In this document: positions 9,413 to 48,997 of the stretch, piece by piece
Position numbering within the stretch: the stretch's first letter is position 1
How the letters are laid out: each line of letters begins with the position of its first letter
Source of the DNA: a virus
Lineage: Duplodnaviria; Caudoviricetes
Length of the DNA stretch: 54,925 nucleotides
Strand: one strand, 5' to 3'
IMG/VR virus record: IMGVR_UViG_3300034107_000498
Coordinates: 1 to 54,925 of that record
Notes under the pieces: model-generated
What the model was told of the DNA's origin: nothing
What the model saw: only the letters and a program-made list of their open reading frames with translations
Database searches by the model: none
Translations under genes and position numbers: made by a program

Positions 9413-10120
9413 ATGATATCAGGAATATATTTATTACGATTTAAAGATGGTTCTGTGTATGTAGGACAGTCAAGAGATATATACAGAAGGTATACTACCC
9501 ACTGTAATAAACTTGAGAAGGGTACCCACTCTAACTCTAAAGTATCTTCTGCATACTCTAAGTACGGAAAGCCTGTCTTAGAAGTCCTATTAGAATGTGC
9601 TACCAGCACTTTAGATATTAATGAAAAAGAAGCAATACAAATATATGATTCTATCAATAATGGTCTAAATATTGCACCTGCTGGAGGAGAGTTTCCTATA
9701 TTAAATGGAGAATCTAACGGGTTTTCAAGGTATTCTGATAGTGAAATTATATCTGCTATGGAGTACTTAGCCAATAATTTAAACCAGCCCTTAAAAGTAT
9801 CTGCAGACATACTAGGTATTAACTATTCCACTATTAAGAATATATCAAATGGTACATCTCACAGATGGTTATCACAAAAGATTCCTGATACATATAATAA
9901 AGTACTATCTCATAAAGGCAAGCGTATAATTAATACTAGTGGTAGTAAAGGTAGATCATATACAGCTATATCACCAACAGGAATAATATACACTAATATA
10001 ACAAATATAACTACTTTTGCTAAAGAACATGGATTAAATCGTGGAGCTTTAGGTGAAGTAGTACGAGGAAATGCTCATCAACACAAAGGCTGGACCTCTA
10101 TTCCCAATCCCTTAATTTAA
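9413..10120 (+). CDS. free-standing GIY-YIG homing endonuclease with C-terminal HTH/NUMOD-like DNA-binding domains
   Basis: SGIYLL...YVGQS..RRY..H, then E and N conserved; HTH-like SADILGINYSTIKNI; C-terminal FAKEHGL...HKGW. Confidence 0.85.
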   Translation: MISGIYLLRFKDGSVYVGQSRDIYRRYTTHCNKLEKGTHSNSKVSSAYSKYGKPVLEVLLECATSTLDINEKEAIQIYDSINNGLNIAPAGGEFPILNGESNGFSRYSDSEIISAMEYLANNLNQPLKVSADILGINYSTIKNISNGTSHRWLSQKIPDTYNKVLSHKGKRIINTSGSKGRSYTAISPTGIIYTNITNITTFAKEHGLNRGALGEVVRGNAHQHKGWTSIPNPLI

Positions 10121-10128
10121 TAAAAAAT

Positions 10129-10299
10129 ATGGAACCACAAAAAGATTTTATTTTAACACTAACTTTAACTGTAGAAGAAGCAAATACAATTTTAGCGGGA
10201 CTACAAGAACTACCTGCTAAAGTTTCTAACCCACTAACTAATAAGTTAGTAAGACAAGCACAGGAACAGCTTGCCAAAGAGCAAGTACCCGAAGAGTAA
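10129..10299 (+). CDS. small hypothetical protein (56 aa, not in the ORF track)
   Basis: MEPQKDFILTLTLTVEEANTILAGLQELPAKVSNPLTNKLVRQAQEQLAKEQVPEE*, followed by a terminator. Confidence 0.75.
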   Translation: MEPQKDFILTLTLTVEEANTILAGLQELPAKVSNPLTNKLVRQAQEQLAKEQVPEE

Positions 10300-10306
10300 G
10301 CAAAAT

Positions 10307-10346
10307 AAAAGCCCCCAAGTTTAATAGCTTGGGGGCTTTTTCTTTT
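10307..10346 (+). terminator. Rho-independent terminator
   Basis: AAAAGCCCCCAAG-loop-CTTGGGGGCTTTT-TCTTTT. Confidence 0.9.
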
Positions 10347-10440
10347 GGAACAGAATTTTATAGTAACGTGCATTTTGACTCCTGTAACCAGAAAATTAAG
10401 GTTGTTGTGACATATCAATCATGTTATAATAGTTACGGTT
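10347..10440 (+). repeat. 94-bp imperfect direct repeat, copy 1, containing an extended -10 promoter
   Basis: Aligns without gaps to 10747-10840; TTGTTG-17-TATAAT (10425-10430) with TG. Confidence 0.9.
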
Positions 10441-10463
10441 AATAAACTTTAAAGGAATAAATT

Positions 10464-10718
10464 ATGAGAACATATTGGGTATATAAGTACAATAAAACGC
10501 CTGAAAGCGATACTATAGAATACAATGATGAAGCTACTATGGTTGAAAATAATCTAAGAACCATGAGACGGGCTATAGAAAGTATAGATGAAGTAATCAA
10601 CAATAAAGACAATGTACCTGAATGGGTACAGGAAAAAATTGCTGTAACTAAGTCAATGCTGGTTAGTGTATCGGAGTATATGCAATCAAAACAACGTAGT
10701 AAAAAAGAGCTATATTGA
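10464..10718 (+). CDS. hypothetical helical protein (84 aa)
   Basis: AAGGA RBS; DNVPEWVQEKIA motif; directly after promoter copy 1. Confidence 0.75.
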   Translation: MRTYWVYKYNKTPESDTIEYNDEATMVENNLRTMRRAIESIDEVINNKDNVPEWVQEKIAVTKSMLVSVSEYMQSKQRSKKELY

Positions 10719-10746
10719 TTTTATGGTTTAGTGGATTGTTATTGGC

Positions 10747-10840
10747 GGAACATAATTTCTTAGTTACTTGCATTTTAATTCCTGTAGCCAGAAAATTAAG
10801 GTTGCTGTCATATATCAAACATGCTATAATATTCACAGTT
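10747..10840 (+). repeat. 94-bp imperfect direct repeat, copy 2, containing an extended -10 promoter
   Basis: Exactly 400 bp downstream of copy 1; TTGCTG-17-TATAAT (10825-10830) with TG. Confidence 0.9.
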
Positions 10841-10901
10841 GCCAAGGTTTTGGTAACTGCGCGTGATACGCAGTATCATTTCTGCTTTAAAAGGAAGTTG
10901 T

Positions 10902-11753
10902 ATGGCAGATGAGACTGGCGTACCAGAATTAAATTCAACAAATAATGTTGGGTATGATATGAGTGCGCTTCAAACTAAAATTGATCAAGCTAATAACTAC
11001 TATTCAAAAGTTATGAGTGAGATTACAAAACTAAAGGATAAAAACATGGCAGAAATTATGACTCCCGGTATGATTATGGGTGGTAACGGTGATGGTGGTA
11101 TGGGCATTGGCGGTGGATTAATCGGTGGATTGATCTTGGGCAGTTTGCTGCGTAACAACGGAAATTTGTTGGGCGGTGACGGAGCAGGTGCAGCAGCAGG
11201 TGCAGTTCTTCGCAGTCCTCCAGAACAAGTACAAGCAAATATGAGTTTAATGGCAGCTATTGGTGCCGTTGATAAGTCAGTTGCAGTATCAACAACAGCA
11301 TTTGAAGCATCACAAGCTGCTCAAAGTTTAGGTTTAACAAATCAGTTTAACAATACTACTGCTGCTTTGTCAGCACAGTTAATGACGCTTCAAAGAGAAG
11401 TAATGGAAAACCGTTATGAACTGTCTAAAGACATTACAGCAGATGGTGCAGCAACTCGTGCTTTAATTGTATCACAATACGAAAATACATTAAACCGTCA
11501 ACTTGGTGATGCAAACGCTGAAATTATTGCATTAAAAAATCGTTCAGCGCTTGATGCAGCTACTAGCGGTATTACTCTTACAAATACCAATAACATCAAT
11601 CAGATGCAACAACAGTCACAACAACAACAACAGTACGCACATTTGGCAAACTTGATCTATGGGTTAGGTCAAAACATCACAAATGGTGCAATTAATGTTG
11701 GAAGTGGTACACTTACTGCTAACCCAGTTAACACAAATACTAGCATCCGTTAA
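10902..11753 (+). CDS. Gly-rich / hydrophobic / coiled-coil / Q,N-rich protein; second in-frame start at 11046
   Basis: AAGGAAG RBS before ATG 10902 and AAGGA before ATG 11046; GGGLIGGLILGSLL segment; ADGAATRALI; NNINQMQQQSQQQQQ. Confidence 0.8.
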   Translation: MADETGVPELNSTNNVGYDMSALQTKIDQANNYYSKVMSEITKLKDKNMAEIMTPGMIMGGNGDGGMGIGGGLIGGLILGSLLRNNGNLLGGDGAGAAAGAVLRSPPEQVQANMSLMAAIGAVDKSVAVSTTAFEASQAAQSLGLTNQFNNTTAALSAQLMTLQREVMENRYELSKDITADGAATRALIVSQYENTLNRQLGDANAEIIALKNRSALDAATSGITLTNTNNINQMQQQSQQQQQYAHLANLIYGLGQNITNGAINVGSGTLTANPVNTNTSIR

Positions 11754-11770
11754 TATTTAATGTGTTTAAT

Positions 11771-11807
11771 AAGCCCCGCAGCCACAAGTTGTGGGGCTTT
11801 TTATTTT
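11771..11807 (+). terminator. Rho-independent terminator
   Basis: AAGCCCCGCAGC-loop-GTTGTGGGGCTT-TTTATTTT. Confidence 0.85.
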
Positions 11808-11818
11808 AAGGAATAAAT

Positions 11819-12322
11819 ATGGATCAAAGACAAAGACAAAGTATGCCTTTTGGTTGGCCTATGGCTCCATTTATACCTGCCATAATGCCTGCTCCTATAG
11901 TGCCTTTTTGTCCTCCTGTGTTAGATGATTGTGACTTAGTTATTAACAGTAACATTATAGGACCTCCTGGACCTCCTGGACCTCCTGGACCTCCTGGACC
12001 TCAAGGTGAACCAGGACCCCAAGGCCCTGCTGGCAGTTTAGCAGATGTTCCTGTTACACTAATAGACGAAGCAACATATATTCCAGATTTAACAGAATAT
12101 TTTTTAGGTGTTATTTATGATGGTTCGGTTACGATTACTTTACCTGCGGGTACTCTGGGCAAAGTTTATGTTGTCAAAGATGCTGTTGGAGACGCTAACA
12201 CGAATCCGATTACTGTGGTAGCTACTGGTTCGACTATTGATAGTTTAACCAATTATGTATTAAACACAGATTGGGGATCTATTAGTTTAATTTACAACGG
12301 TATAGAATGGAACGTAGTATGA
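11819..12322 (+). CDS. collagen-like protein with Pro/Cys-rich N-terminus and beta-rich C-terminal domain
   Basis: (GPP)4-GPQ-GEP-GPQ-GPA; C-terminal TITLP..GKVYVVKD...TIDS...SLIYNGIEW; AAGGA RBS. Confidence 0.8.
   Translation: MDQRQRQSMPFGWPMAPFIPAIMPAPIVPFCPPVLDDCDLVINSNIIGPPGPPGPPGPPGPQGEPGPQGPAGSLADVPVTLIDEATYIPDLTEYFLGVIYDGSVTITLPAGTLGKVYVVKDAVGDANTNPITVVATGSTIDSLTNYVLNTDWGSISLIYNGIEWNVV
11960..12002 (+). repeat. 9-bp tandem repeat GGACCTCCT (collagen GPP)
   Basis: ggacctcct x4 + ggacctc. Confidence 0.9.
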
Positions 12323-12870
12323 GCTATAATCAACCTTTGGCTTCAACTACTGATTATGGTGCTGTAAAAGTTGGCGGTGGTTTAAGTGTTACAGATGGCG
12401 TTATTAGCGCAGGAAGTGGCTTGCTTAACTATGGGTTTTATAGCAATGGCACGCAAACGAATCCAGTTGCAAATCAAGTTAACATAGGCACATTTAGTAC
12501 TACAGGACCTAACAACGGTGTTACACTAATAGGTAATAACATTTTACGAGTAACCAATGCTGGCGTGTACACAGTGCTATTTACTACCACAATGGCAAAA
12601 ACCAGTGGCGGTACTAGCGCAATGAGTATTTGGTTACGATATAATGGAGTAGATGTACCTGGCTCGCGCCAAGACTTAGAGTTAATAAATACTTTATCAA
12701 TAATATTTACCAGTGGCAATTTTACTTTGCCAATGGCTGCTAACAGTGACTTACAGTTTTGTTGGTCTAGTGCAGATACAACAGTAAATCTCAGTGCATT
12801 ACCTGCGGCAATAAATCCTATACGACCCCCAGGTAGTAGTTTAAAAGTTACAATGACTAGAATTAGTTAA
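12319..12870 (+). CDS. BclA-CTD / C1q-TNF-like beta-sandwich protein
   Basis: Start at ATG 12319 (ATGA overlap with the upstream stop); VTNAGVYTVLF...IWLRYNGVDVPGS pattern; fold assigned by resemblance only. Confidence 0.55.
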   Translation: MSYNQPLASTTDYGAVKVGGGLSVTDGVISAGSGLLNYGFYSNGTQTNPVANQVNIGTFSTTGPNNGVTLIGNNILRVTNAGVYTVLFTTTMAKTSGGTSAMSIWLRYNGVDVPGSRQDLELINTLSIIFTSGNFTLPMAANSDLQFCWSSADTTVNLSALPAAINPIRPPGSSLKVTMTRIS

Positions 12871-12883
12871 AAAAGGAAAAATC

Positions 12884-13288
12884 ATGGCATTTAATAGCCC
12901 ATTAAGTTCAACCACTAGTTACGGAGTGGTTAAGGTTGGTAACGGTGTAAACGTAACCAACGGAGTTATTTCTGTAGTAGGAAATGGCGTAGTTAATACA
13001 ACATTAGTTAACAATGCAGCAAGCCCTTATACACTTGATAGTGCTGCTGTAACTCCCAACTATTACCTTGGTGTAGAAGGTACCGGCGCAGCAATTAGCA
13101 TATTATTAACAGCGGGTACAGAAGGCCGAGTAGTTGTAATTAAATCAGAAGCAGGACAAACCAGCGATATTACAATTACTCCTAACGGTGCAGAAACTAT
13201 TGAAAACACAGCTACTTATACAATATTAGCTGCAACAGACGGCGCAGTTACATTAATATTTAGCGGCACAAACTGGAACGCTGTATAA
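12884..13288 (+). CDS. beta-rich protein, mosaic paralog of the two upstream genes
   Basis: N-terminus NSPLSSTTSYGVVKVGNG resembles 12319 NQPLASTTDYGAVKVGGG; C-terminus GRVVVIKS...TIE...TLIFSGTNWNAV resembles the 11819 C-terminus. Confidence 0.7.
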   Translation: MAFNSPLSSTTSYGVVKVGNGVNVTNGVISVVGNGVVNTTLVNNAASPYTLDSAAVTPNYYLGVEGTGAAISILLTAGTEGRVVVIKSEAGQTSDITITPNGAETIENTATYTILAATDGAVTLIFSGTNWNAV

Positions 13289-13725
13289 TGGAAGAACTAC
13301 ACACAGCCCTTAAAAAGGCTTTTGCAACAACCTATGCGTTTTTAGTAAAAGCAGAAAATTTTCATTGGAATGTAACTGGTGTTAACTTTGTGCAATATCA
13401 CAAATTGTTTGGTGAAATTTACGACGAAGTTGAAGACGAACTAGACGATTTTGCTGAAACACTACGTGCACAAAGTATTTATGTGCACGCAAGTTTTCAA
13501 CATTTAAAAGAAATGTCTGCTGTAGAAGATACACTAGAAATTTTACCTGCAAAAGAAATGTTGCGAGTACTTTATATAGATAATGTTAAAGTACATGAAA
13601 CATTATTAACAGCATATCAGTTAGCTGAAACTTATAGAAAACCAGACTTATGTGCTTTTTTAAGTGAACGTATAGAAGAACACCGTAAACACGGTTGGAA
13701 ACTTTTTTCAAGCCTGGAACCATAA
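13288..13725 (+). CDS. dps: Dps family mini-ferritin (DNA protection during starvation)
   Basis: FHWNVTG..F..YHKLFGEIY...DDFAE.LR ferroxidase signature; C-terminal KHGW. Confidence 0.9.
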   Translation: MEELHTALKKAFATTYAFLVKAENFHWNVTGVNFVQYHKLFGEIYDEVEDELDDFAETLRAQSIYVHASFQHLKEMSAVEDTLEILPAKEMLRVLYIDNVKVHETLLTAYQLAETYRKPDLCAFLSERIEEHRKHGWKLFSSLEP

Positions 13726-13764
13726 AAAAGCCCCTATAGATTGCTCTATAGGGGCTTTTTCTTT
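13724..13764. terminator. bidirectional Rho-independent terminator between convergent units
   Basis: AAAAAAGCCCCTATAG-loop-CTATAGGGGCTTTTT. Confidence 0.9.
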
Positions 13765-14398
13765 ATGTTGGAGTATCTTCGTTGCTGTCTTCGTCATCAA
13801 CACTATCTTCATCGTGCATACTATGTAAATTACCAAATACATTTACTAGCATATCGCGATAAGGTTGCTCTACCATATGTAAATCTACTAAATATACATC
13901 TAGGTGATCAAGTCGTAATAGCTCTGCATGATACATAAATTGACCAAATGCTTCTAGTTCTTCACTAATATACTCATTTGCATAATTTTCAAGTACTTGA
14001 GCTGCTACTATACGTGCCATTTTAGGTACAATACCTTTTTCACTTAGTTTTACTAAGTGTAGTGCTTTACCTTCACGTTCTCGCATAATTTGGTTGCGTT
14101 TAGCAGTACTCCAAGAGTATCCGCCGTCTCCGCCCCATAAATCCCAAGCAACACGACCTTTGCTTGGAAAACCTTCCTCACCACTATTAAAACCAGTAGC
14201 ACGTTTGTCTACTTCGTGACGACTAAAGAATGAAAACATTCGCAGTACAGTTGAAGCTGTTAGTGGATCACGATCTTTTAGTTGATTTGCTCGTGCTAAA
14301 CCAACTAGTGTCCCGCCTGGTTTACCATCCGCTCGCCATTTAAGTGCACGACGGGCTGCACTTGCCATGCCTGATGTAGGCTTATAAGTTGTTGCCAT
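13763..14398 (-). CDS. conserved phage hypothetical protein with acidic C-terminal domain
   Basis: PTSGMASAARRALKWR, GLARANQL, RMFSFFSRHE, VAWDLWGGDGG; a motif set I recognise from aquatic phages, function unknown. Confidence 0.75.
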   Translation of the reverse strand: MATTYKPTSGMASAARRALKWRADGKPGGTLVGLARANQLKDRDPLTASTVLRMFSFFSRHEVDKRATGFNSGEEGFPSKGRVAWDLWGGDGGYSWSTAKRNQIMREREGKALHLVKLSEKGIVPKMARIVAAQVLENYANEYISEELEAFGQFMYHAELLRLDHLDVYLVDLHMVEQPYRDMLVNVFGNLHSMHDEDSVDDEDSNEDTPT

Positions 14399-14400
14399 AA

Positions 14401-15087
14401 TTAGTCTCTATAAGCTAAAATAATCTGTTTACACATTTTAGATCTGACAATATCATCATCCATGAATCTTACGACTTCAATGTCTGGGATACGATCTAGT
14501 CTGTGAATTGCATCTGATAGTCCTGAGTCAGGAATATCTGCTTGATCTACGTCGCCACTAATAATCATTTTACAGTTTTTACCAATGCGTGATAGCAGCA
14601 TTTTCATTTCTTCTTTTGTGGCATTTTGTGCTTCATCTAAGAGAACAATGCAATTGTCAAAAGTTGCACCTCGCATAAAGCCCAGTGGCTTAGGCTCAAT
14701 CGTTTTTGCTTTTAGTGCGTACTCGTAAAACCCTTTTCCAAGGCTACGAGCAAATACGTTATCAAAAGGTTCTAGATAAGGAGCATACTTCTCCTCTAGT
14801 GTACCTGGTAAAAATCCTAGCCCACGTCCTGTTTCTACGTTGGGTCTAGTCAGAATTATTTTCTGAATACGTCTATGAAAGAGTTCTCCCGCAGCATATG
14901 TTGCTGCTACATACGTCTTACCTGTTCCAGCACTTCCTACACCAAATACTATTTGATTAGATTGAATTGCTCTTAGGTATTCTGCCTGTATAAAGTTTAG
15001 GGGTTTTACGTCTGTAAATCCATACTCTACTGGGTTACGTTCCAATTGAATTACATTGTCGCGTCTTGCTCTTTTACCACTTGCCAT
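14401..15087 (-). CDS. phoH: PhoH family ATPase
   Basis: GSAGTGKT, LTRP, LGFLPG, FMRGATF, LDEAQN, GDVDQ, DIVRS. Confidence 0.95.
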   Translation of the reverse strand: MASGKRARRDNVIQLERNPVEYGFTDVKPLNFIQAEYLRAIQSNQIVFGVGSAGTGKTYVAATYAAGELFHRRIQKIILTRPNVETGRGLGFLPGTLEEKYAPYLEPFDNVFARSLGKGFYEYALKAKTIEPKPLGFMRGATFDNCIVLLDEAQNATKEEMKMLLSRIGKNCKMIISGDVDQADIPDSGLSDAIHRLDRIPDIEVVRFMDDDIVRSKMCKQIILAYRD

Positions 15088-17156: not shown

Positions 17157-17771
17157 TTAGGCTCCTAGTACATGCTTGGCATGTTCATAGTGTTTTTTAC
17201 GATCTTCTAATCCAATAGTACCGCCATTGATGCGTTTGGTAAGTGTTAAGATATCATCTTTATCCGCCCACTGATTTAAGTTGTTAGTTTCCCAGAACCA
17301 GCAAGCTGATTGGGCTGCACCTTCAAAAGTTTCCATATATTGAGAAGCTTCTTCAGGCGATAAGTTTATTGAGGCAGCAAACCAAAAGTAGTTATCTTTG
17401 CCAGTTAATTGAATTAATCCGCGACCGCTGTAACGATAGCCATCGCCTGTTTCAGGTCCGCCATTACCCATCCTATTAGCATAGACTAGATTGGCAATTT
17501 TTTCTGGCTTGTTTGCATACTGTTGAGCCATCTCGTCTGTGGGAAAATATTTAGGAAAAATCTTCCTAAGTGTAACTGCACGATAATTTAAGTTTTCTTT
17601 GATTGCACGAAAACCACCTGACTCATGCGCACATTGCGCTAAAAATGCTGCCATGCGCTGTGGAGTATTAATTTCGTATTCTGGTAGTAGCTGTACTAAT
17701 GCTTTGTGCCAGTACTCTATGTATGGATTTTTCTCAACAATTTGTTTTAGTTGCTGTAATGTTAATTCCAT
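17157..17771 (-). CDS. endolysin, glycoside hydrolase family 19
   Basis: FLAQCAHESGGF..ENLNY, YSGRGLIQLTGKDNY, SACWFW, TKRINGG..GLEDR. Confidence 0.93.
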   Translation of the reverse strand: MELTLQQLKQIVEKNPYIEYWHKALVQLLPEYEINTPQRMAAFLAQCAHESGGFRAIKENLNYRAVTLRKIFPKYFPTDEMAQQYANKPEKIANLVYANRMGNGGPETGDGYRYSGRGLIQLTGKDNYFWFAASINLSPEEASQYMETFEGAAQSACWFWETNNLNQWADKDDILTLTKRINGGTIGLEDRKKHYEHAKHVLGA

Positions 17772-18495: not shown

Positions 18496-19182
18496 TCATA
18501 CTTCAGGAAATAATTCTTTATGTATGTAATCGTGGACTTGATCATCGTTAAATCCTAGTGTTTTCAATACTCTGGGAGTATGTGGGTTACATTTTTGTTG
18601 CTGACAGTAATAATTTTGTTTTTCTGTAAAATTATTCTGTGTTACCATATCCTCATATTTTAATGCTGGGCGATATTTTGATATGTTATCTAAGTAGTAA
18701 ATTAACGACTTCTTGGATATTTCTAATATTATACTCATTTCAAAATCAGTATTAATATTTCCAGCAGCAACCATGCGGTTTGAAAATATATTACGTGCCC
18801 ATTCAGGCAGTTCTCGTGGCTTTGCCCACGAGGTAGGTTCTACAAACTCTTGAAACCATTTGCACATTGGGTGCTCAGGGTCGCCTGTAGGTGAAAAATC
18901 TAAAAACGCTCCTGTGATCTTATTTGTTCCTGCTACAATGTCAAAGCCGTAAATTGGGGCTGCATCGTAAACGTGCGGGAATATACACAAGTGCATCATA
19001 TAAAGTTTTTTGGATTCTGACACGTCAATAACATCTAAGTTACCACGTCGGATCCAAGCACTAGAAAAATTCTTAGTGTACCAACCAGAATCGTATTCTG
19101 TTGGCAAAGGAAAAGCTCGTGCTGCAAGAATTGTTTCCAATTCTTGTGCATGAGCTTTTAGTTTACTGAATATTGTACTCAT
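18496..19182 (-). CDS. pcyX: ferredoxin-dependent bilin reductase, PcyA/PcyX-type
   Basis: MMHLCIFP, PIYGFDIVAG, AFLDFSP, RELPEWA.IFS, QNYYC.QQ..NPHT.RVL; adjacent to heme oxygenase. Confidence 0.88.
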   Translation of the reverse strand: MSTIFSKLKAHAQELETILAARAFPLPTEYDSGWYTKNFSSAWIRRGNLDVIDVSESKKLYMMHLCIFPHVYDAAPIYGFDIVAGTNKITGAFLDFSPTGDPEHPMCKWFQEFVEPTSWAKPRELPEWARNIFSNRMVAAGNINTDFEMSIILEISKKSLIYYLDNISKYRPALKYEDMVTQNNFTEKQNYYCQQQKCNPHTPRVLKTLGFNDDQVHDYIHKELFPEV

Positions 19183-19702: not shown

Positions 19703-20067
19703 TAGGTTGGTGCTTGTGGTACTACAATTTCTGCAATAGTTGTAGCTGCTGCAAAAGTTTGTGGCATATCACGTAATTGTTGACGATAAGTTGCCCACTC
19801 AGCTTTTTTAGCTGCAGTTAGTGGGCTGTCCGCTACCTGAGTCCAATCAGATTCTTGTAATAGATGTGCTCGTAAACTACGAATACCCATATCAAGTTGA
19901 GCTTTAGTAATTTCTGGCTCCGCTGGAACAGGAATGTGCTCAATCCAGCCGAGTTCAGTTAAACCAACAGTGTCTGTTAAACCTGTTCTGGCTAAAACTT
20001 GACGATAAGGAACTAAGCTTTCTATTACTACGCCATTTACTACATAGTTAAATAATACATTATCCAT
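19702..20067 (-). CDS. tail fibre assembly chaperone-like protein
   Basis: R..LLQESDWTQ..D.PL....WATYRQQLRDMP motif. Confidence 0.8.
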   Translation of the reverse strand: MDNVLFNYVVNGVVIESLVPYRQVLARTGLTDTVGLTELGWIEHIPVPAEPEITKAQLDMGIRSLRAHLLQESDWTQVADSPLTAAKKAEWATYRQQLRDMPQTFAAATTIAEIVVPQAPT

Positions 20068-20984
20068 TACATATCTCCTGTGCCAGTTGACGGAAATTTT
20101 CTACCGGTACCCCAAATAATACGAACACAGCCGCGTCCACCAACTTGTATACCGTGACCAAATGCTGAGTTGTCGCCAGGACCGCCACCGCCACCGCCGT
20201 AAAGACCGCCAGGTCTTTCGCCAGTACCATAGCTGTACCAAGGATTTTCACCCATTCTGCCGTCTTCACCACCTGATCCGCCTTTGCCGCCGTCATATGA
20301 TGTACCGGCACCTGAAGCACCTTGACCAAATGGTCCTGTACCACCACCACTAGAATAACCGTGTGTACTAGAATAGTTACCACCACCGCCAGCACCACCG
20401 CCACTGCCAGCACTTCCACCAGAGTTACCACCATTGCCAGTATATCCTCCAGCACCTCCACCAGCTTGGCTACTTGCGCCAGAACCACCGTTACCACCGC
20501 CATCACCTGTCCAAGTACCGCCACTTTTATTTGGAGAACCACCGCCTCTGACAGTAGCCGTATCAATAAAAAAGCTAGTTCCGCCAGCAGGATCAGTACC
20601 GCCTAGGTTACCACCTTTACCTACTTGAACAGTATAAGTTTTGCCCGGCTCAACTGAAATGTTGTTTTTCCAACCTAATCCACCACCACCACCACCTCCG
20701 TTACCAGACGAAGTAGCTCCACTGCTAGAAGCTCCGCCACCAATACAAACTACACATACTGAAGTAACGCCAGGCGGGCAAGTCCAAGCATAGGTACCGG
20801 CTCCAAAACCATAAAAAGCCTGGCCTACAGGTCCTGAAGGACCGCCTTCGACAGGTGGGGGTACAAAAGTAAGATTACCTTTACCATCAGTTAATAATGC
20901 TTGACCAGCAGTACCGTCTCGTAAAGGAAGTGTAAATTCAGCACCTTCTCGTCTTTGTAATTGATCTGTTACAATTTTTGTCAT
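20067..20984 (-). CDS. glycine-rich fibre tip/adhesin-like protein
   Basis: YAWTCPPGVTSVCVVCIGGG, many GGxGG repeats, C-terminal GCVRIIWG. Confidence 0.75.
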   Translation of the reverse strand: MTKIVTDQLQRREGAEFTLPLRDGTAGQALLTDGKGNLTFVPPPVEGGPSGPVGQAFYGFGAGTYAWTCPPGVTSVCVVCIGGGASSSGATSSGNGGGGGGGLGWKNNISVEPGKTYTVQVGKGGNLGGTDPAGGTSFFIDTATVRGGGSPNKSGGTWTGDGGGNGGSGASSQAGGGAGGYTGNGGNSGGSAGSGGGAGGGGNYSSTHGYSSGGGTGPFGQGASGAGTSYDGGKGGSGGEDGRMGENPWYSYGTGERPGGLYGGGGGGPGDNSAFGHGIQVGGRGCVRIIWGTGRKFPSTGTGDM

Positions 20985-21002
20985 AAATTATCCTAATAAG
21001 GT

Positions 21003-46700: not shown

Positions 46701-48485
46701 TGAAAATGCTTCAGCTTGGTCTCCTGTATTTGACAAAGCTGAATCAAGTAAACTAATAGCCTGAACTACAACACCTGCTACGATTCCGTAAATGCCAAAA
46801 GCATTTATTAAAGAACCTAACTTTTGGCCGACAATACCAATTACACCTGCAACACGAGTATACCCCGCTTGAAGTCTATTCATTTTACCTGTCGTCTCTA
46901 TTACTGCCTTACCTTCTTCATCATAACGAGTAATTACTTTTAACTTTCCTTCGCGGGCAAGAGCAATTTGTTCATTTAATTTAGCGTATGCAGCTCTAGA
47001 GCCGTATATGGCTTGAGTTTCTGCAGCTGTAGACCTAATACTTTCGCCAGCTAATTTATTTAGTGTGCGTCTATTTATAATGTCATTAGAACCTGGTGTA
47101 GTAAATCCTGGTTCTGTGCCACTAATAACATTTTGAGAAGTTGTTTCAAATGCTGTTGCGGCTCCTGCACGTATTGCTTTTAGCTTTCCAAGGTGTAACG
47201 TAAGCGCTTGTGCTTCGGCGTCGTTTCTGCCTTTTAAATATCGTGCACGATTTTCTAAAGATTTAATTTCTTCGGGCGTAATAGCAAACGGATCTTTACC
47301 TGCTAATGCTGCAAAATCTTTTCGACCTTTGGAAAAACCTTTAGCAGACTTTTCTAATTCAGCAATTTTATCTAATGTAGGTTTTTGTCTTTTATATGCC
47401 TCGGCAGCAGCTGCACCTGCGCTATCGGCTAGTGCACCTAATTTTTCTTGTTGGTCACTATATATTTGGGTAAAAACCATTCGGCTATCATTTGCCGCAT
47501 TTTTTAAATTCTGACGATACTGACCTAATGCAGGTATAGCGCTTTTAAGTATTGACGCCCCAATTGCTGCAATAACTGCTAACAAGGCGGTAGGATTTTG
47601 TGTTAGTACATTAACTAACGGACTTAATACCTTGTTTACTATTTCTAAAGCACCTTGACCTAAGTTTTGTAGACTGGCTAACAACCTATCATAAGGATTT
47701 GCACTTACATCAATAGCACTAAACTTATCTAAGCCTTCTTTTAATACTGCTGTAGCAAAAGCCTGACGTCTTTCAAAATCACTTAAACTACCTGCTGTTT
47801 TTCCTATGCTTCGTGCATAGTCTTGTGTAGCTTTTTCAATTTTTGTAAATAAGCCCAGTTCGTCTAACAGTTCAGGCTCTAACTTACTAATACCACGTGT
47901 TAAACGGCTAATAGCGTCTGGCATAGCAACACCTAATGCTTTGGAAGCTTTATTTGCTACTTGGCCTAGTTGTTCCATTTGCTTTGACGACAGTCCAGCA
48001 GCAGTACCTTTAGTAGTAGCTTCAATAGATTCACGCATACTAATAGCGCCATCAGTGACTTCTACTAGTCTTTTAGCAATTGTACCAAGAGATTGTCCAG
48101 TAACGGCACCTAACTGATCCATACCTTTGATCATGTTAGTAGTATCTGCTGCGTTACTTAATGCGCGAAATGCGGCACCAGCCGCAAATACATTAGCTGC
48201 ATAAGTAGCATATAAGCGTACTAATCCATCAAGCCCTCGAGCTTGATTTGCAAAATCTCGGCCAGATGCACCCGTTGCCCCGGCACTACCCCTGGCAACA
48301 TCATATTCGTTGCCACCCATCATGGCGTTTTTCCAACCGCCTTTACCTTTACCAGCAGGTCTATTCATATCCTTTTGAAGTGAATCAAAAGTTCCTTTGA
48401 ACGCCTTTAAATCCTTATGACTGGCATTAATAGTGCCAAGGTCGGATAGTTTAATATATAATACAGCGGTATCATTATTAGCCAT
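43770..48485 (-). CDS. tail tape measure protein
   Basis: 1571-aa Ala-rich helical protein; T5 pb2-like GRDFANQARGL..LV..YAT.AAN, KLEPELLDELG; C-terminal FAKGG..MGEAGPEAIMPL. Confidence 0.93.
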   Translation of the reverse strand: MANNDTAVLYIKLSDLGTINASHKDLKAFKGTFDSLQKDMNRPAGKGKGGWKNAMMGGNEYDVARGSAGATGASGRDFANQARGLDGLVRLYATYAANVFAAGAAFRALSNAADTTNMIKGMDQLGAVTGQSLGTIAKRLVEVTDGAISMRESIEATTKGTAAGLSSKQMEQLGQVANKASKALGVAMPDAISRLTRGISKLEPELLDELGLFTKIEKATQDYARSIGKTAGSLSDFERRQAFATAVLKEGLDKFSAIDVSANPYDRLLASLQNLGQGALEIVNKVLSPLVNVLTQNPTALLAVIAAIGASILKSAIPALGQYRQNLKNAANDSRMVFTQIYSDQQEKLGALADSAGAAAAEAYKRQKPTLDKIAELEKSAKGFSKGRKDFAALAGKDPFAITPEEIKSLENRARYLKGRNDAEAQALTLHLGKLKAIRAGAATAFETTSQNVISGTEPGFTTPGSNDIINRRTLNKLAGESIRSTAAETQAIYGSRAAYAKLNEQIALAREGKLKVITRYDEEGKAVIETTGKMNRLQAGYTRVAGVIGIVGQKLGSLINAFGIYGIVAGVVVQAISLLDSALSNTGDQAEAFSKSIDGVTDASKNLVRTFDVLNKTPFASGTIQGILALSNAQLEVSNSVETAIDAAKKLDRAMQTSPYDKVKDNIATFFGGGLSKNLAKSLNTTVQDSLQVFAEMGKKDEAEAILKQALGVESLDITSVTKAFEKGDPVIKKYSDAQKKLSSIIGNSSSNLQNFKSSTEISNKAYQEFIQSTANNNPLFKLGESLNDVSSAMLKVTSGGINEINAAFDDLTKNPEKFRLFGQDFVNEFVGMRDQFKLTFEAYNTYKNSINQLDREDLKLKKQLEFYNNAPDRLTNPEVANKIKALQASLDVNRESRGMASRQQTGLSTSVFTQAADLFSRGADKAFEKSKELINVALGQAAAKAALTIDKARAGSLTGEQAAIEQGRLKQRELQIQLNAINTNIDLIKSQELLRASIDESTALTAFNTAKPGEEQQAAELYGAAVIFKKALEESKGRGFVNIPLQNDGSLKESTLKLKMGTVNRQIATQQAAATGVQGEMAGGRIETDRAKRAGQLSDLQKMEGAQDSIRQQELARLNILGGITNSLTEQGLKDVQRLENLSAESKYLLEIAAGKTALADAAADQNFIEFDKQRKLLNFVEQRQEKEKDNKGLQDQFKIIDLRFAKEKLGRDIDSQAQENALKMTAAQLGAEQELFNARSSLGMIYGEQAETQRKTLEYSTLNNTILQSEIALQKEKSTVLAEIENRILKLAAAGKDTSEIEKEKAAALSNFESQRSALAITNDGRKRALELTQSLTDRQLAYGEVFKNSFDEMGNALIEFTKTGKLNFKSLIDGMIEGLIRYELQQQSVALYAAARPALMNLIGSVFGFGVGPITANGFRAQDLAGGSVTTTGPSFAKGGAFDIGLKTFAKGGMFTNSVVNSPTLFKFAQGAGLMGEAGPEAIMPLKRDSNGNLGVRAGGGGGSVDVVVNNYGNQQATTKETTDSRGNRKIEVIIGDMVASEVARPGSSVQQSLAGSFNSRPALARR

Positions 48486-48538
48486 GCATACTCCTATTCG
48501 TATATTATCAAAATTTTTTGATAATTTAACTAGAGACC

Positions 48539-48567
48539 ATTATAACATGTGAGCACTCTTTTGTCAA
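48539..48567 (-). promoter_or_regulatory. consensus sigma70 promoter for tape measure and tail tip genes
   Basis: Minus strand TTGACA-17 bp-TATAAT with extended TG. Confidence 0.88.
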
Positions 48568-48586
48568 ACCAAAAAATTTTTAACGC

Positions 48587-48618
48587 AAAAAAGCCCGCTA
48601 ATTTTTAGCTAGCGGGCT
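48587..48618 (-). terminator. Rho-independent terminator
   Basis: Minus strand AGCCCGCTA-loop-TAGCGGGCT-TTTTT. Confidence 0.85.
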
Positions 48619-48997
48619 CTTGCATCTTTTTCTTATTATTGATTTCTTCTGATCTTACATTGTCAATTATGCGTATAAGCATAATTACAAGTTTATGTTC
48701 AGAAACATCAATCTCTGTTGCTTCTAAAATGTCTTTAACACCTATTAAGGATTTACCTAAGTAACTGCCACTCATGGTATCCCATTCGTCACGGAGCATT
48801 TTATAGGCGTTAAACGCCTGTTGTACTTCTAGCGGAAAGTCTTCGAAATCAACTGGAATCTCGGACTCTAGTGGTTCGTTACCTAACTCTTCACACATTT
48901 CAAAATATGCGTCTTTGGTCATGCCAACACTCATATTTTGGAAATAATTGACCAACTGCCCGTTTACTTGCTGGAGTTGGTCGTCGAAAAGTTTCCC
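48605..48997 (-). CDS. tail assembly chaperone gpGT-like C-terminal part, reached by -1 frameshift
   Basis: The -1 frame from GGGAAAC reads KLFDDQLQQVNGQLVNYFQNM..., continuous with ORF 48605-48955. Confidence 0.85.
   Translation of the reverse strand, partial: GKLFDDQLQQVNGQLVNYFQNMSVGMTKDAYFEMCEELGNEPLESEIPVDFEDFPLEVQQAFNAYKMLRDEWDTMSGSYLGKSLIGVKDILEATEIDVSEHKLVIMLIRIIDNVRSEEINNKKKMQEPAS

Follow-up and report, generated by a model that had tools for sequence, protein, structure and literature searches.

Collagen-like, C1q-like and Dps genes in a phage belong to a mobile cassette that probably encodes accessory fibers

What would a phage do with a collagen-like protein, a C1q-like protein and a Dps-family mini-ferritin encoded side by side? 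The question is raised by a cassette of six genes in IMGVR_UViG_3300034107_000498, an IMG/VR virus record of 54,925 nt (CheckV completeness 51%) that we analyzed over its whole length and refer to as the window. A preliminary description of this DNA had proposed that the cassette proteins co-assemble with Dps into a protective coat resembling the Bacillus exosporium. Our analysis leads to a different answer. With moderate confidence, we read the locus as a mobile, hypervariable accessory fiber or adhesin cassette that carries Dps as an optional auxiliary gene. Modular phage fiber genes are known; the core pair that they surround here, one gene for a Gly-rich protein of 283 amino acids (aa) and one for a collagen-family protein, is uncharacterized and very widespread.

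The evidence for this pair comes from a survey of the neighborhoods of 283-aa homologs at 57 distinct viral loci, which we annotated with hidden Markov models built from our own alignments. Six of these loci end too soon, leaving 51 that could be assessed for the collagen gene; the C1q-like and Dps genes were counted in the 47 loci whose downstream sequence extends for 2.5 kb or more. A collagen-family gene follows the gene for the 283-aa protein in all 51 assessable loci. When only open reading frames (ORFs) of 90 aa or more are counted, it comes first in 43 loci and second, after Dps, in 5, and in 3 it is represented by a variant poor in Gly-X-Y (GXY) triplets; a shorter unrecognized ORF intervenes in at least two loci (L010 and L042). 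At least one gene with five or more GXY repeats was present in 49 of the 51, and in 8 loci the pair stands alone as a minimal cassette. The C1q-like gene was found in 20 of 47 loci, Dps in 15 and both in 9. The last count agrees with the preliminary description, according to which Gly-rich, BclA-like and ferritin-like genes are neighbors in other phages. The conserved linkage that it expected of the BclA-like and Dps genes was not found: the pair alone is constant.

The genes around this core share modules. The collagen-family protein (167 aa) has a Q-rich and then Pro/Phe-rich N-terminus followed by a D.DL.IN motif, nine uninterrupted GXY repeats at residues 48-74, which correspond to a 9-nt repeat in the DNA (11951-12031), and an XD1-like C-terminus. 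It had been described as rich in Pro and Cys. The first half of this description holds (25 of 167 residues are Pro) but only two Cys are present, and Cys is not conserved in the collagen N-termini of 37 relatives, which have 0 to 3 each. The Pfam Collagen score of 23.2 bits is just below the cut-off of 27.2, and matches to PHROG tail-fiber families are weak and limited to the collagen repeat. The 134-aa protein had been proposed to be a mosaic paralog, and its sequence confirms this: its N-terminal 46 aa are 52% identical to the N-terminus of the C1q-like protein and its C-terminal 89 aa are 37% identical to the C-terminus of the collagen protein.

We compared a structural model of the 134-aa protein (pLDDT 73) with known structures using VIA and Foldseek. 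The best VIA match was to residues 75-175 of CBA120 TSP4 (7rej; Z 11.5, root-mean-square deviation (rmsd) 2.7 Å over 95 residues), followed by the C-terminus of the Solidus tailspike (11.1), the KP1 baseplate protein (10.7) and the knob of the Pa223 capsid spike (9.6). CpaA (8.7) and StcE (7.2) scored lower and the next unrelated match reached 4.5. Foldseek returned T4 gp9 (1qex, 5e-3) and 7rfo (4e-4). This is the same set that has been published for TSP4 XD1 (PMC8825819). Weak Pfam matches to T4_gp9_10_N (15.2 bits for the 167-aa protein, below the gathering score of 25) and Phage_depo_C agree with the XD1-like fold. On this evidence, the C-terminal ~95 residues of both the 134-aa and the 167-aa proteins are predicted to form an XD1-like beta-sandwich, which they share with T4 gp9 and gp10, TSP4 XD1, the gp52 knob of Pa223 and the Solidus tailspike (Z 9.6-11.5). 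TSP4, gp9 and gp10 are large baseplate-attached proteins that carry the domain in their interior; in the cassettes it forms the C-terminus of proteins of 130-210 aa. Pa223 gp52 has been reported to be a small trimeric capsid spike that is more variable than the tail fibers (bioRxiv 10.1101/2025.06.11.659172), and it resembles the cassette proteins as a small, fast-evolving accessory spike. The XD1-like sequence family occurs almost exclusively in small proteins, with only two longer members found, both unnamed.

The C1q-like protein (183 aa) begins with a fiber motif of ~30 residues, STT.YG..KVG.GL.V..GVIS, and continues with a jelly-roll head (residues 31-183). An AlphaFold2 model of the monomer, built with 19 homologs, had a pLDDT of 82. 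Foldseek matched it to F-BclA, BclA, BxpB/ExsFA and 4-1BBL at E about 1e-7, and VIA gave Z 16.3-16.4 for EDA-A1, BclA and F-BclA (rmsd 2.3-2.4 Å over 128-135 residues) and 13-15 for C1q heads. The same jelly-roll was recovered over residues 31-183 in TNF/C1q-like phage tips (8ke9, 9k09, 4l92, 1yq8 and 9n6a; Z 10.8-15.5): the cyanophage A4 tail complex (15.5), the CBD of the cyanophage A-1(L) short tail fiber (14.8), the receptor-binding protein of lactococcal phage 1358 (12.0), PRD1 P5 (11.4) and the receptor-binding domain of TM4 gp23 (10.8). The best matches in BFVD were proteins of up to 1485 aa (E 1e-15 to 1e-18), several of them named for collagen repeats, lambda Stf repeats, S74 or YadA heads. 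Sequence searches with the 183-aa protein gave neither a Pfam family (E<=0.1) nor a PDB match (E<=1). Judged from the model, its fold is of the C1q/TNF type seen in the C-terminal domain (CTD) of BclA, as the preliminary description had suggested. The C1q-like fold is a common phage fiber head. In phiAC-1 it ends a 349-aa protein encoded directly after the capsid gene, and C1q domains are catalogued as heads of the tail fibers of extracellular contractile injection systems (PMC12923769). The cassette protein differs from the phage tips in that its head sits on a stand-alone protein of 183 aa, behind the short fiber motif and encoded outside the virion block, and in having no sequence match to Pfam C1q or to the solved structures.

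How far does the likeness to Bacillus extend? The CTDs of BclA (1wck, Z 16.3), F-BclA (9h38, Z 16.3) and ExsFA (Z 15.4) are alike in fold and a collagen gene adjoins the C1q-like gene, and both the BclA/ExsF-type fold and the collagen repeats speak for an exosporium-like coat. However, BclA, from a spore former, carries stalk and head on one chain. Here a GXY run is missing from the 183-aa protein, and the repeats are on the separate protein encoded before it, which ends in an XD1-like domain; identity to BclA is 12-19%, and nothing in the phage context points to a spore-forming host. No ExsF/BxpB-like gene was recognized beyond the fold likeness of the C1q-like head, and no exosporium basal-layer, anchoring or targeting parts were identified. 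The C1q-like fold, moreover, is widespread at phage fiber tips.

A third head extends this series. One locus (L015, 9102-11322) encodes two proteins of 366-372 aa in which the N-terminal motif of the C1q-like protein is joined to Pfam Ice_binding (E 8e-31 and 3e-28), a DUF3494-type beta-helix. The cassette genes are modular: one N-terminal motif is combined with C1q-like, XD1-like and ice-binding-like heads that are swapped among relatives. The exchange of a head for an ice-binding-like beta-helix suits ligand recognition better than it suits a uniform coat.

The cassette also changes faster than its surroundings and moves. Identity between the window and its relatives is 85-99% for ribonucleotide reductase (RNR) and 66-99% for PhoH, which flank the cassette, compared with 29-93% for the cassette proteins. 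Between these same two arms the cassette is inverted in three loci (L020, L055 and L057), where it runs with the PhoH and endolysin genes and converges on RNR. About a dozen loci have flanks without any ORF that matches a window gene outside the cassette, and in five that we sampled (L027, L031, L038, L042 and L059) the flanks contain endonuclease, methyltransferase and phosphoesterase genes. Two of these, L042 and L059, are unrelated phage backbones, one of them a contig of 233 kb. Both have a sigma-factor-like gene directly upstream of the cassette (7054-7779 in L042, 7124-7792 in L059), and in both a papain-family Peptidase_C1 gene closes it (11820-12548 and 11298-12071, respectively). A megablast search of GenBank phages with the window cassette gave no match. 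Collectively, the inversions, the unrelated backbones and a conserved promoter element point to a mobile and autonomous cassette.

This promoter element is 94 nt long and occurs in the window as two direct repeats that are 83% identical and each end in TGnTATAAT. These are its only copies in the window; for the second of the motifs used to look for it, 0 of 100 shuffles reached 2 matches. With nhmmer we found 37 copies in the window and the related loci together, before the genes for the 84-aa and 283-aa proteins. Among 23 distinct copies TATAAT is invariant and three blocks, GGAAYATAATTT, AGTAAC.TGCATTT and TCCTGTA.CC, are invariant or nearly so. Some relatives lack the 84-aa gene, and wherever it is present a separate copy of the element comes with it; its product has no match in Pfam, PHROG, NCBIfam or PADLOC and no similarity to the 95-aa neighbor of the homolog in phage At2. 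The element represents no known RNA family, as an Rfam search of 10250-13850 gave sub-threshold terminator-like matches only. The idea that it is a shared late promoter was rejected because it has only two copies in the window. Elsewhere in the window, at 48480-48625 (minus strand), a terminator is followed by a consensus sigma-70 promoter (TTGACA, 17 nt, TGnTATAAT) directly upstream of the tape-measure gene; this promoter has only the -10 region in common with the 94-nt element.

The 283-aa protein is the least familiar part of the core. It consists of an N-terminal helical extension, a hydrophobic Gly-zipper segment (residues 65-83, GGGLIGGLILGSLL, KD19 1.58), an Ala/Gln/Asn-rich region predicted to be helical, a Q-run and a C-terminus in which AINVGSGT..NT..IR is invariant in the family. 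The N-terminal extension is variable or missing among relatives. A composition so rich in G and Q/N may be of the self-associating kind, which would suit a coat. Homologs are numerous: a word-indexed search in which 8000 candidates were scored yielded 2090 proteins at E<=0.001, and an exhaustive profile search with the family yielded 402 clusters at 50% identity. Among the 120 homologs listed, none had a Pfam domain or a name beyond "hypothetical protein". The window protein itself had only a sub-threshold match to CggR_N in Pfam, none in PHROGs, NCBIfam or PADLOC, chance-level rows in the PDB by phmmer and profile search (E>=0.15), and only unnamed viral clusters, with no model, in the ESM Atlas. 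None of 10 longer family members had a Pfam match above cut-off.

By tblastn, the only cultured phage with a match to the 283-aa protein was Acinetobacter phage At2, at 45% coverage. A scan of bacterial and archaeal genomes in a genome collection gave a single match (L064), although, as it relied on exact peptide patterns, it is weak evidence of absence elsewhere. L064 is a 20-kb contig of a GTDB metagenome-assembled genome titled uncultured Aquiluna sp., with 41% GC in the 12-kb stretch examined. There the 283-aa homolog is followed by a 182-aa collagen-repeat protein, and the contig may be of phage origin and have entered the assembled genome through binning. A complex prediction with three copies of residues 49-283 and three of the collagen N-terminus (residues 1-75) scored 0.00 against a mark of 0.32 and speaks neither for nor against binding.

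The last gene of the cassette had been named as Dps, and the searches agree. Its product scored 52.3 bits against PF00210 (cut-off 24.5), matched PHROG 3636, and matched 45 solved Dps-family structures in the PDB, the best of them 8ff9 over its full length (E 1.5e-15). In alignments, H26, H38, D53 and E57 fall on the ferroxidase positions of 8ff9, 5lbh and 1n1q, the identities of which we take to be those of the Listeria and E. coli Dps ligands. From its sequence, the protein is a genuine Dps-family mini-ferritin with a functional-looking ferroxidase site. It differs from known Dps proteins in being phage-encoded and in falling far below the NCBIfam equivalog cut-off (32.9 versus 114 bits). 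E. coli Dps binds DNA via a Lys-rich N-terminal tail; in the phage protein 6 residues precede the first aligned helix and such an extension is absent, which counts against a coat that protects DNA. Where Dps occurs, it directly follows the gene for the 283-aa protein in 5 loci and closes the cassette in the other 10. These two lineages are 40-49% identical to each other, with identities of 67-100% within the end group, and Dps was recruited into the cassette twice. Several of these features could be taken in favor of a coat: the repeated recruitment to one operon, the nine loci that combine Dps with a C1q-like gene, the translational coupling of Dps in the window and its tight packing in relatives, and the adjoining gene for PhoH, which is also starvation-associated. 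An iron-binding fiber with HxH motifs was considered as the link to Dps and rejected, as the collagen, C1q-like and mosaic proteins are devoid of His.

We favor accessory fibers or adhesins because elements that form trimeric fibers are combined in one cassette (a collagen stalk, a beta-fiber motif, a TNF/C1q head and an XD1 sandwich), because heads are exchanged on a common N-terminal motif, and because the cassette turns over rapidly between conserved flanks. Every fold recognized in the models of the fiber proteins is one that phages use in tail-fiber tips, tailspike anchors or a capsid spike. In the mechanism that we envisage, a constant core of two genes, for the 283-aa protein and for a collagen-stalk protein ending in an XD1-like sandwich, is joined by one to four further small genes that are added or exchanged among relatives and reuse the N-terminal fiber motif with different heads. 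Transcription would begin at the conserved extended -10 promoter, and the hairpin after the gene for the 283-aa protein would attenuate transcription of the downstream genes. The proteins would trimerize and assemble into short fibers on the particle, on either capsid or tail, with the 283-aa protein as their base or assembly partner, and these fibers would aid reversible adsorption or widen host recognition. Dps would have been inserted as an optional auxiliary gene beside PhoH; rather than serving as a structural partner of the fibers, it would most likely limit iron and peroxide damage in the infected cell.

Prophages provide a partial parallel. Prophage collagen-like proteins have been described as trimeric side-tail proteins, and EPclA/B of E. 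coli O157:H7 as a collagen stalk flanked by trimerization domains, with an unusual low-complexity coiled coil nearly devoid of Leu, Val and Ile (PMC3368898). This coiled coil is reminiscent of the Ala/Gln/Asn-rich region in the 283-aa protein. All domains of EPclA are on one chain encoded in the tail region, whereas here they are spread over separate proteins encoded outside it.

If the cassette does encode adhesion fibers, it represents a compact form of plug-and-play head swapping, in which one docking motif is used with at least three head folds. Its abundance in uncultured phages (>2000 core homologs) would make it useful for predicting and understanding the host recognition of environmental phages. 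The core family, unnamed and with neither a Pfam entry nor a structure, makes up a considerable part of phage dark matter, and it can now be assigned a firm genomic partner and a role open to testing. Dps, which is optional and was acquired twice, is a candidate auxiliary gene for the management of iron and peroxide during infection.

Several observations weigh against accessory fibers. The cassette proteins are unusually small for such a role (134-183 aa), and their place in the virion is inferred. The cassette lies outside the structural gene block in the window and also in the other lineages sampled, and the window already encodes tail fibers of 2061 and 1723 aa, a J-like protein of 1580 aa and fiber-assembly chaperones. 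The 283-aa family matches neither a Pfam family nor a solved structure and lacks recognizable homology to virion proteins, and the hydrophobicity of its Gly-zipper is close to that of a transmembrane segment. In phage At2 the homolog lies between the gene for a 1348-aa tail protein and the endolysin and Rz (spanin) genes, just upstream of these lysis genes. In the window's own lineage, no non-fiber gene other than Dps was recognized within the cassette; Dps entered at two positions and is always tightly packed, and a functional tie to the fibers is therefore possible. Finally, the locus counts are counts of contigs, many of which are nearly identical (L038-L041; L016, L018 and L019), so that the number of independent observations is overstated.

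The cassette could instead act at the host membrane. The 283-aa protein could insert through its Gly-zipper and organize the collagen and C1q-like proteins at or in the cell envelope, as a non-virion system that is driven by a host-type promoter, does not depend on expression of the late virion genes and may serve superinfection exclusion, cell aggregation or envelope remodeling. We regard this as rather unlikely. Several points are in its favor. The hydrophobic segment is invariant across the family, At2 included; the promoter has a sigma-70-like extended -10; the cassette is always found outside the virion modules; lysis genes are nearby in At2, L020 and L057; and the 283-aa protein matches no structural family in PHROGs. 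However, the hydrophobicity of the segment is just borderline for a membrane helix, and the fiber proteins have no classical signal peptide, starting instead with a Q-rich and then Pro/Phe-rich stretch or with the beta-fiber motif. The closest phage parallels of the recognized folds are virion fibers and spikes. Moreover, the type of promoter does not separate early from late genes, since the tape-measure gene, too, has a strong sigma-70 consensus promoter upstream of it.

There is a second alternative. The constant core could be an undescribed mobile phage module that builds a non-canonical structure, in which collagen fibers with interchangeable heads (C1q-like, XD1-like and ice-binding-like) are anchored by a base that is membrane-active or self-associating, and the two recruitments of Dps and that of the papain-like protease could reflect a real functional tie instead of hitch-hiking. 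Such a structure may be made independently of the virion block, under its own conserved regulatory element, and the tie to Dps and the protease may consist, for example, in loading the assembly with iron or in its redox protection. We consider this more doubtful than insertion of the 283-aa protein in the host membrane.

The cassette could also be an accident, a recombination hot spot at the arm junction where unrelated accessory genes (fiber fragments, Dps, PhoH) have gathered without serving a joint function. Its position at the convergence of the arms, the homing endonuclease nearby, the inversions and the varying gene content are all compatible with this idea. We nevertheless find it improbable: the 283-aa and collagen genes are paired without exception and move jointly into unrelated backbones, the genes have overlapping stop and start codons and share regulatory elements, and their products have modules in common. 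The smallest chance falls to the exosporium-like matrix or shell, in which the Gly-rich, collagen, BclA-like and paralogous proteins and Dps would co-assemble to protect phage DNA, virions or the infected cell during starvation or oxidative stress, and which we set aside because 32 of the 47 loci have no Dps and 27 no C1q-like gene, so that the linkage on which it depended was not kept and the core pair persists without either, and because the folds are those of phage fibers, spikes and tailspikes and the architecture of BclA is absent.

The layout of the cassette is given in Table 1. The preliminary description of this layout was accurate: we found the six ORFs, all on the plus strand, the two strong bounding terminators and the duplicated promoters. 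The overlaps of the collagen and C1q-like genes (ATGA, 12319-12322) and of the mosaic paralog and Dps genes (TAATG, 13286-13290) can be read directly in the sequence. The further claim that the unit is self-contained is upheld by its own conserved promoter element, its terminators and its inversion in three relatives. Our terminator scan gave 10 sites, compared with 3.5 +/- 1.5 in shuffled sequences, and included a hairpin between the 283-aa and collagen genes that the earlier list had missed. The four genes distal to this hairpin are probably expressed by read-through, because the ribosome-binding site (RBS) and ATG of the collagen gene follow it within 20 nt. The 5' untranslated region (UTR) of the gene for the 283-aa protein (10833-10905) folds with a minimum free energy of -20.8 kcal/mol (z -2.44), and its hairpins may have a role in regulation or RNA stability. 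An upstream GTG at 10863 falls within this conserved UTR and an RBS (AAGGAAG) precedes the ATG at 10902, which we therefore take as the true start.

Table 1 Positions of the cassette genes and of the associated regulatory features in the window
Feature	Position	Strand	Description
Hairpin	10307..10340	both strands score	Terminator-like; 15-pair stem, 7 GC pairs, T-run; closes the upstream RNR, GIY-YIG and 56-aa genes
Promoter/regulatory element, copy 1	10347..10440	+	94 nt; extended -10 TGTTATAAT at 3' end; upstream of 84-aa gene
84-aa protein, function unknown	10464..10718	+	ORF list
Promoter/regulatory element, copy 2	10747..10840	+	94 nt; upstream of 283-aa gene
5'-UTR hairpin	10836..10859	+	10 pairs, conserved; folding and alignment of relatives
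Second 5'-UTR hairpin	10856..10874	+	Conserved; between promoter and RBS of 283-aa gene
283-aa Gly-rich protein	10902..11753	+	ORF list; 296 aa from 10863
Internal hairpin	11771..11799	+	Terminator-like; between 283-aa and collagen genes
Collagen-family protein, 167 aa	11819..12322	+	ORF list
C1q-like protein, 183 aa	12319..12870	+	ORF list; 187 aa from 12307
Mosaic paralog, 134 aa	12884..13288	+	ORF list
Dps, 145 aa	13288..13725	+	ORF list
Hairpin	13725..13760	+	Terminator-like; 16-pair stem, arms 100% complementary; convergence with minus-strand arm (211-aa gene, PhoH)

The window as a whole belongs to a large siphovirus-type phage, an assignment based on the gene set of its two arms, which we take to be T5-like. 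The plus-strand arm, from base 1 to 13.7 kb, encodes a helicase, a single-stranded DNA-binding protein, an SbcCD-like nuclease, RusA, an exonuclease, dUTPase and RNR, and goes on with a GIY-YIG homing endonuclease and a 56-aa ORF before the cassette. The minus-strand arm starts at 13.8 kb with a 211-aa gene, PhoH (14401-15087) and endolysin (17157-17771) and contains, further along, two fiber-assembly chaperones, the tail-fiber and J-like proteins, the tape measure (1571 aa) and then the major tail and major capsid proteins. The cassette lies where the two arms converge, on the strand of the replication and nucleotide-metabolism arm upstream of it. The statement that it is on the opposite strand from the virion genes is correct in itself, yet the same is true of that entire arm and is not specific to the cassette.

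A few further genes in these arms deserve mention. The GIY-YIG endonuclease (9413-10120, plus strand), between RNR and the 56-aa ORF, has homologs in only two related loci (L029 and L036), lying between RNR and the cassette in L036 alone, and in most other relatives the 56-aa ORF directly follows RNR; it looks like a recent mobile insertion. PhoH (minus strand) is an auxiliary-type gene near the cassette, and so is the gene for a ferredoxin-oxidoreductase-like protein at 18496-19182 (minus strand; PHROG 7278, E 6e-21). Between the two fiber-assembly chaperone genes lies an ORF of 305 aa (20067-20984, minus strand) that belongs to PHROG 4474, a family of unknown function, and the interval 20001-21000 stands out in composition, with a GC content of 0.484 compared with about 0.38 elsewhere and a GC skew of -0.28.

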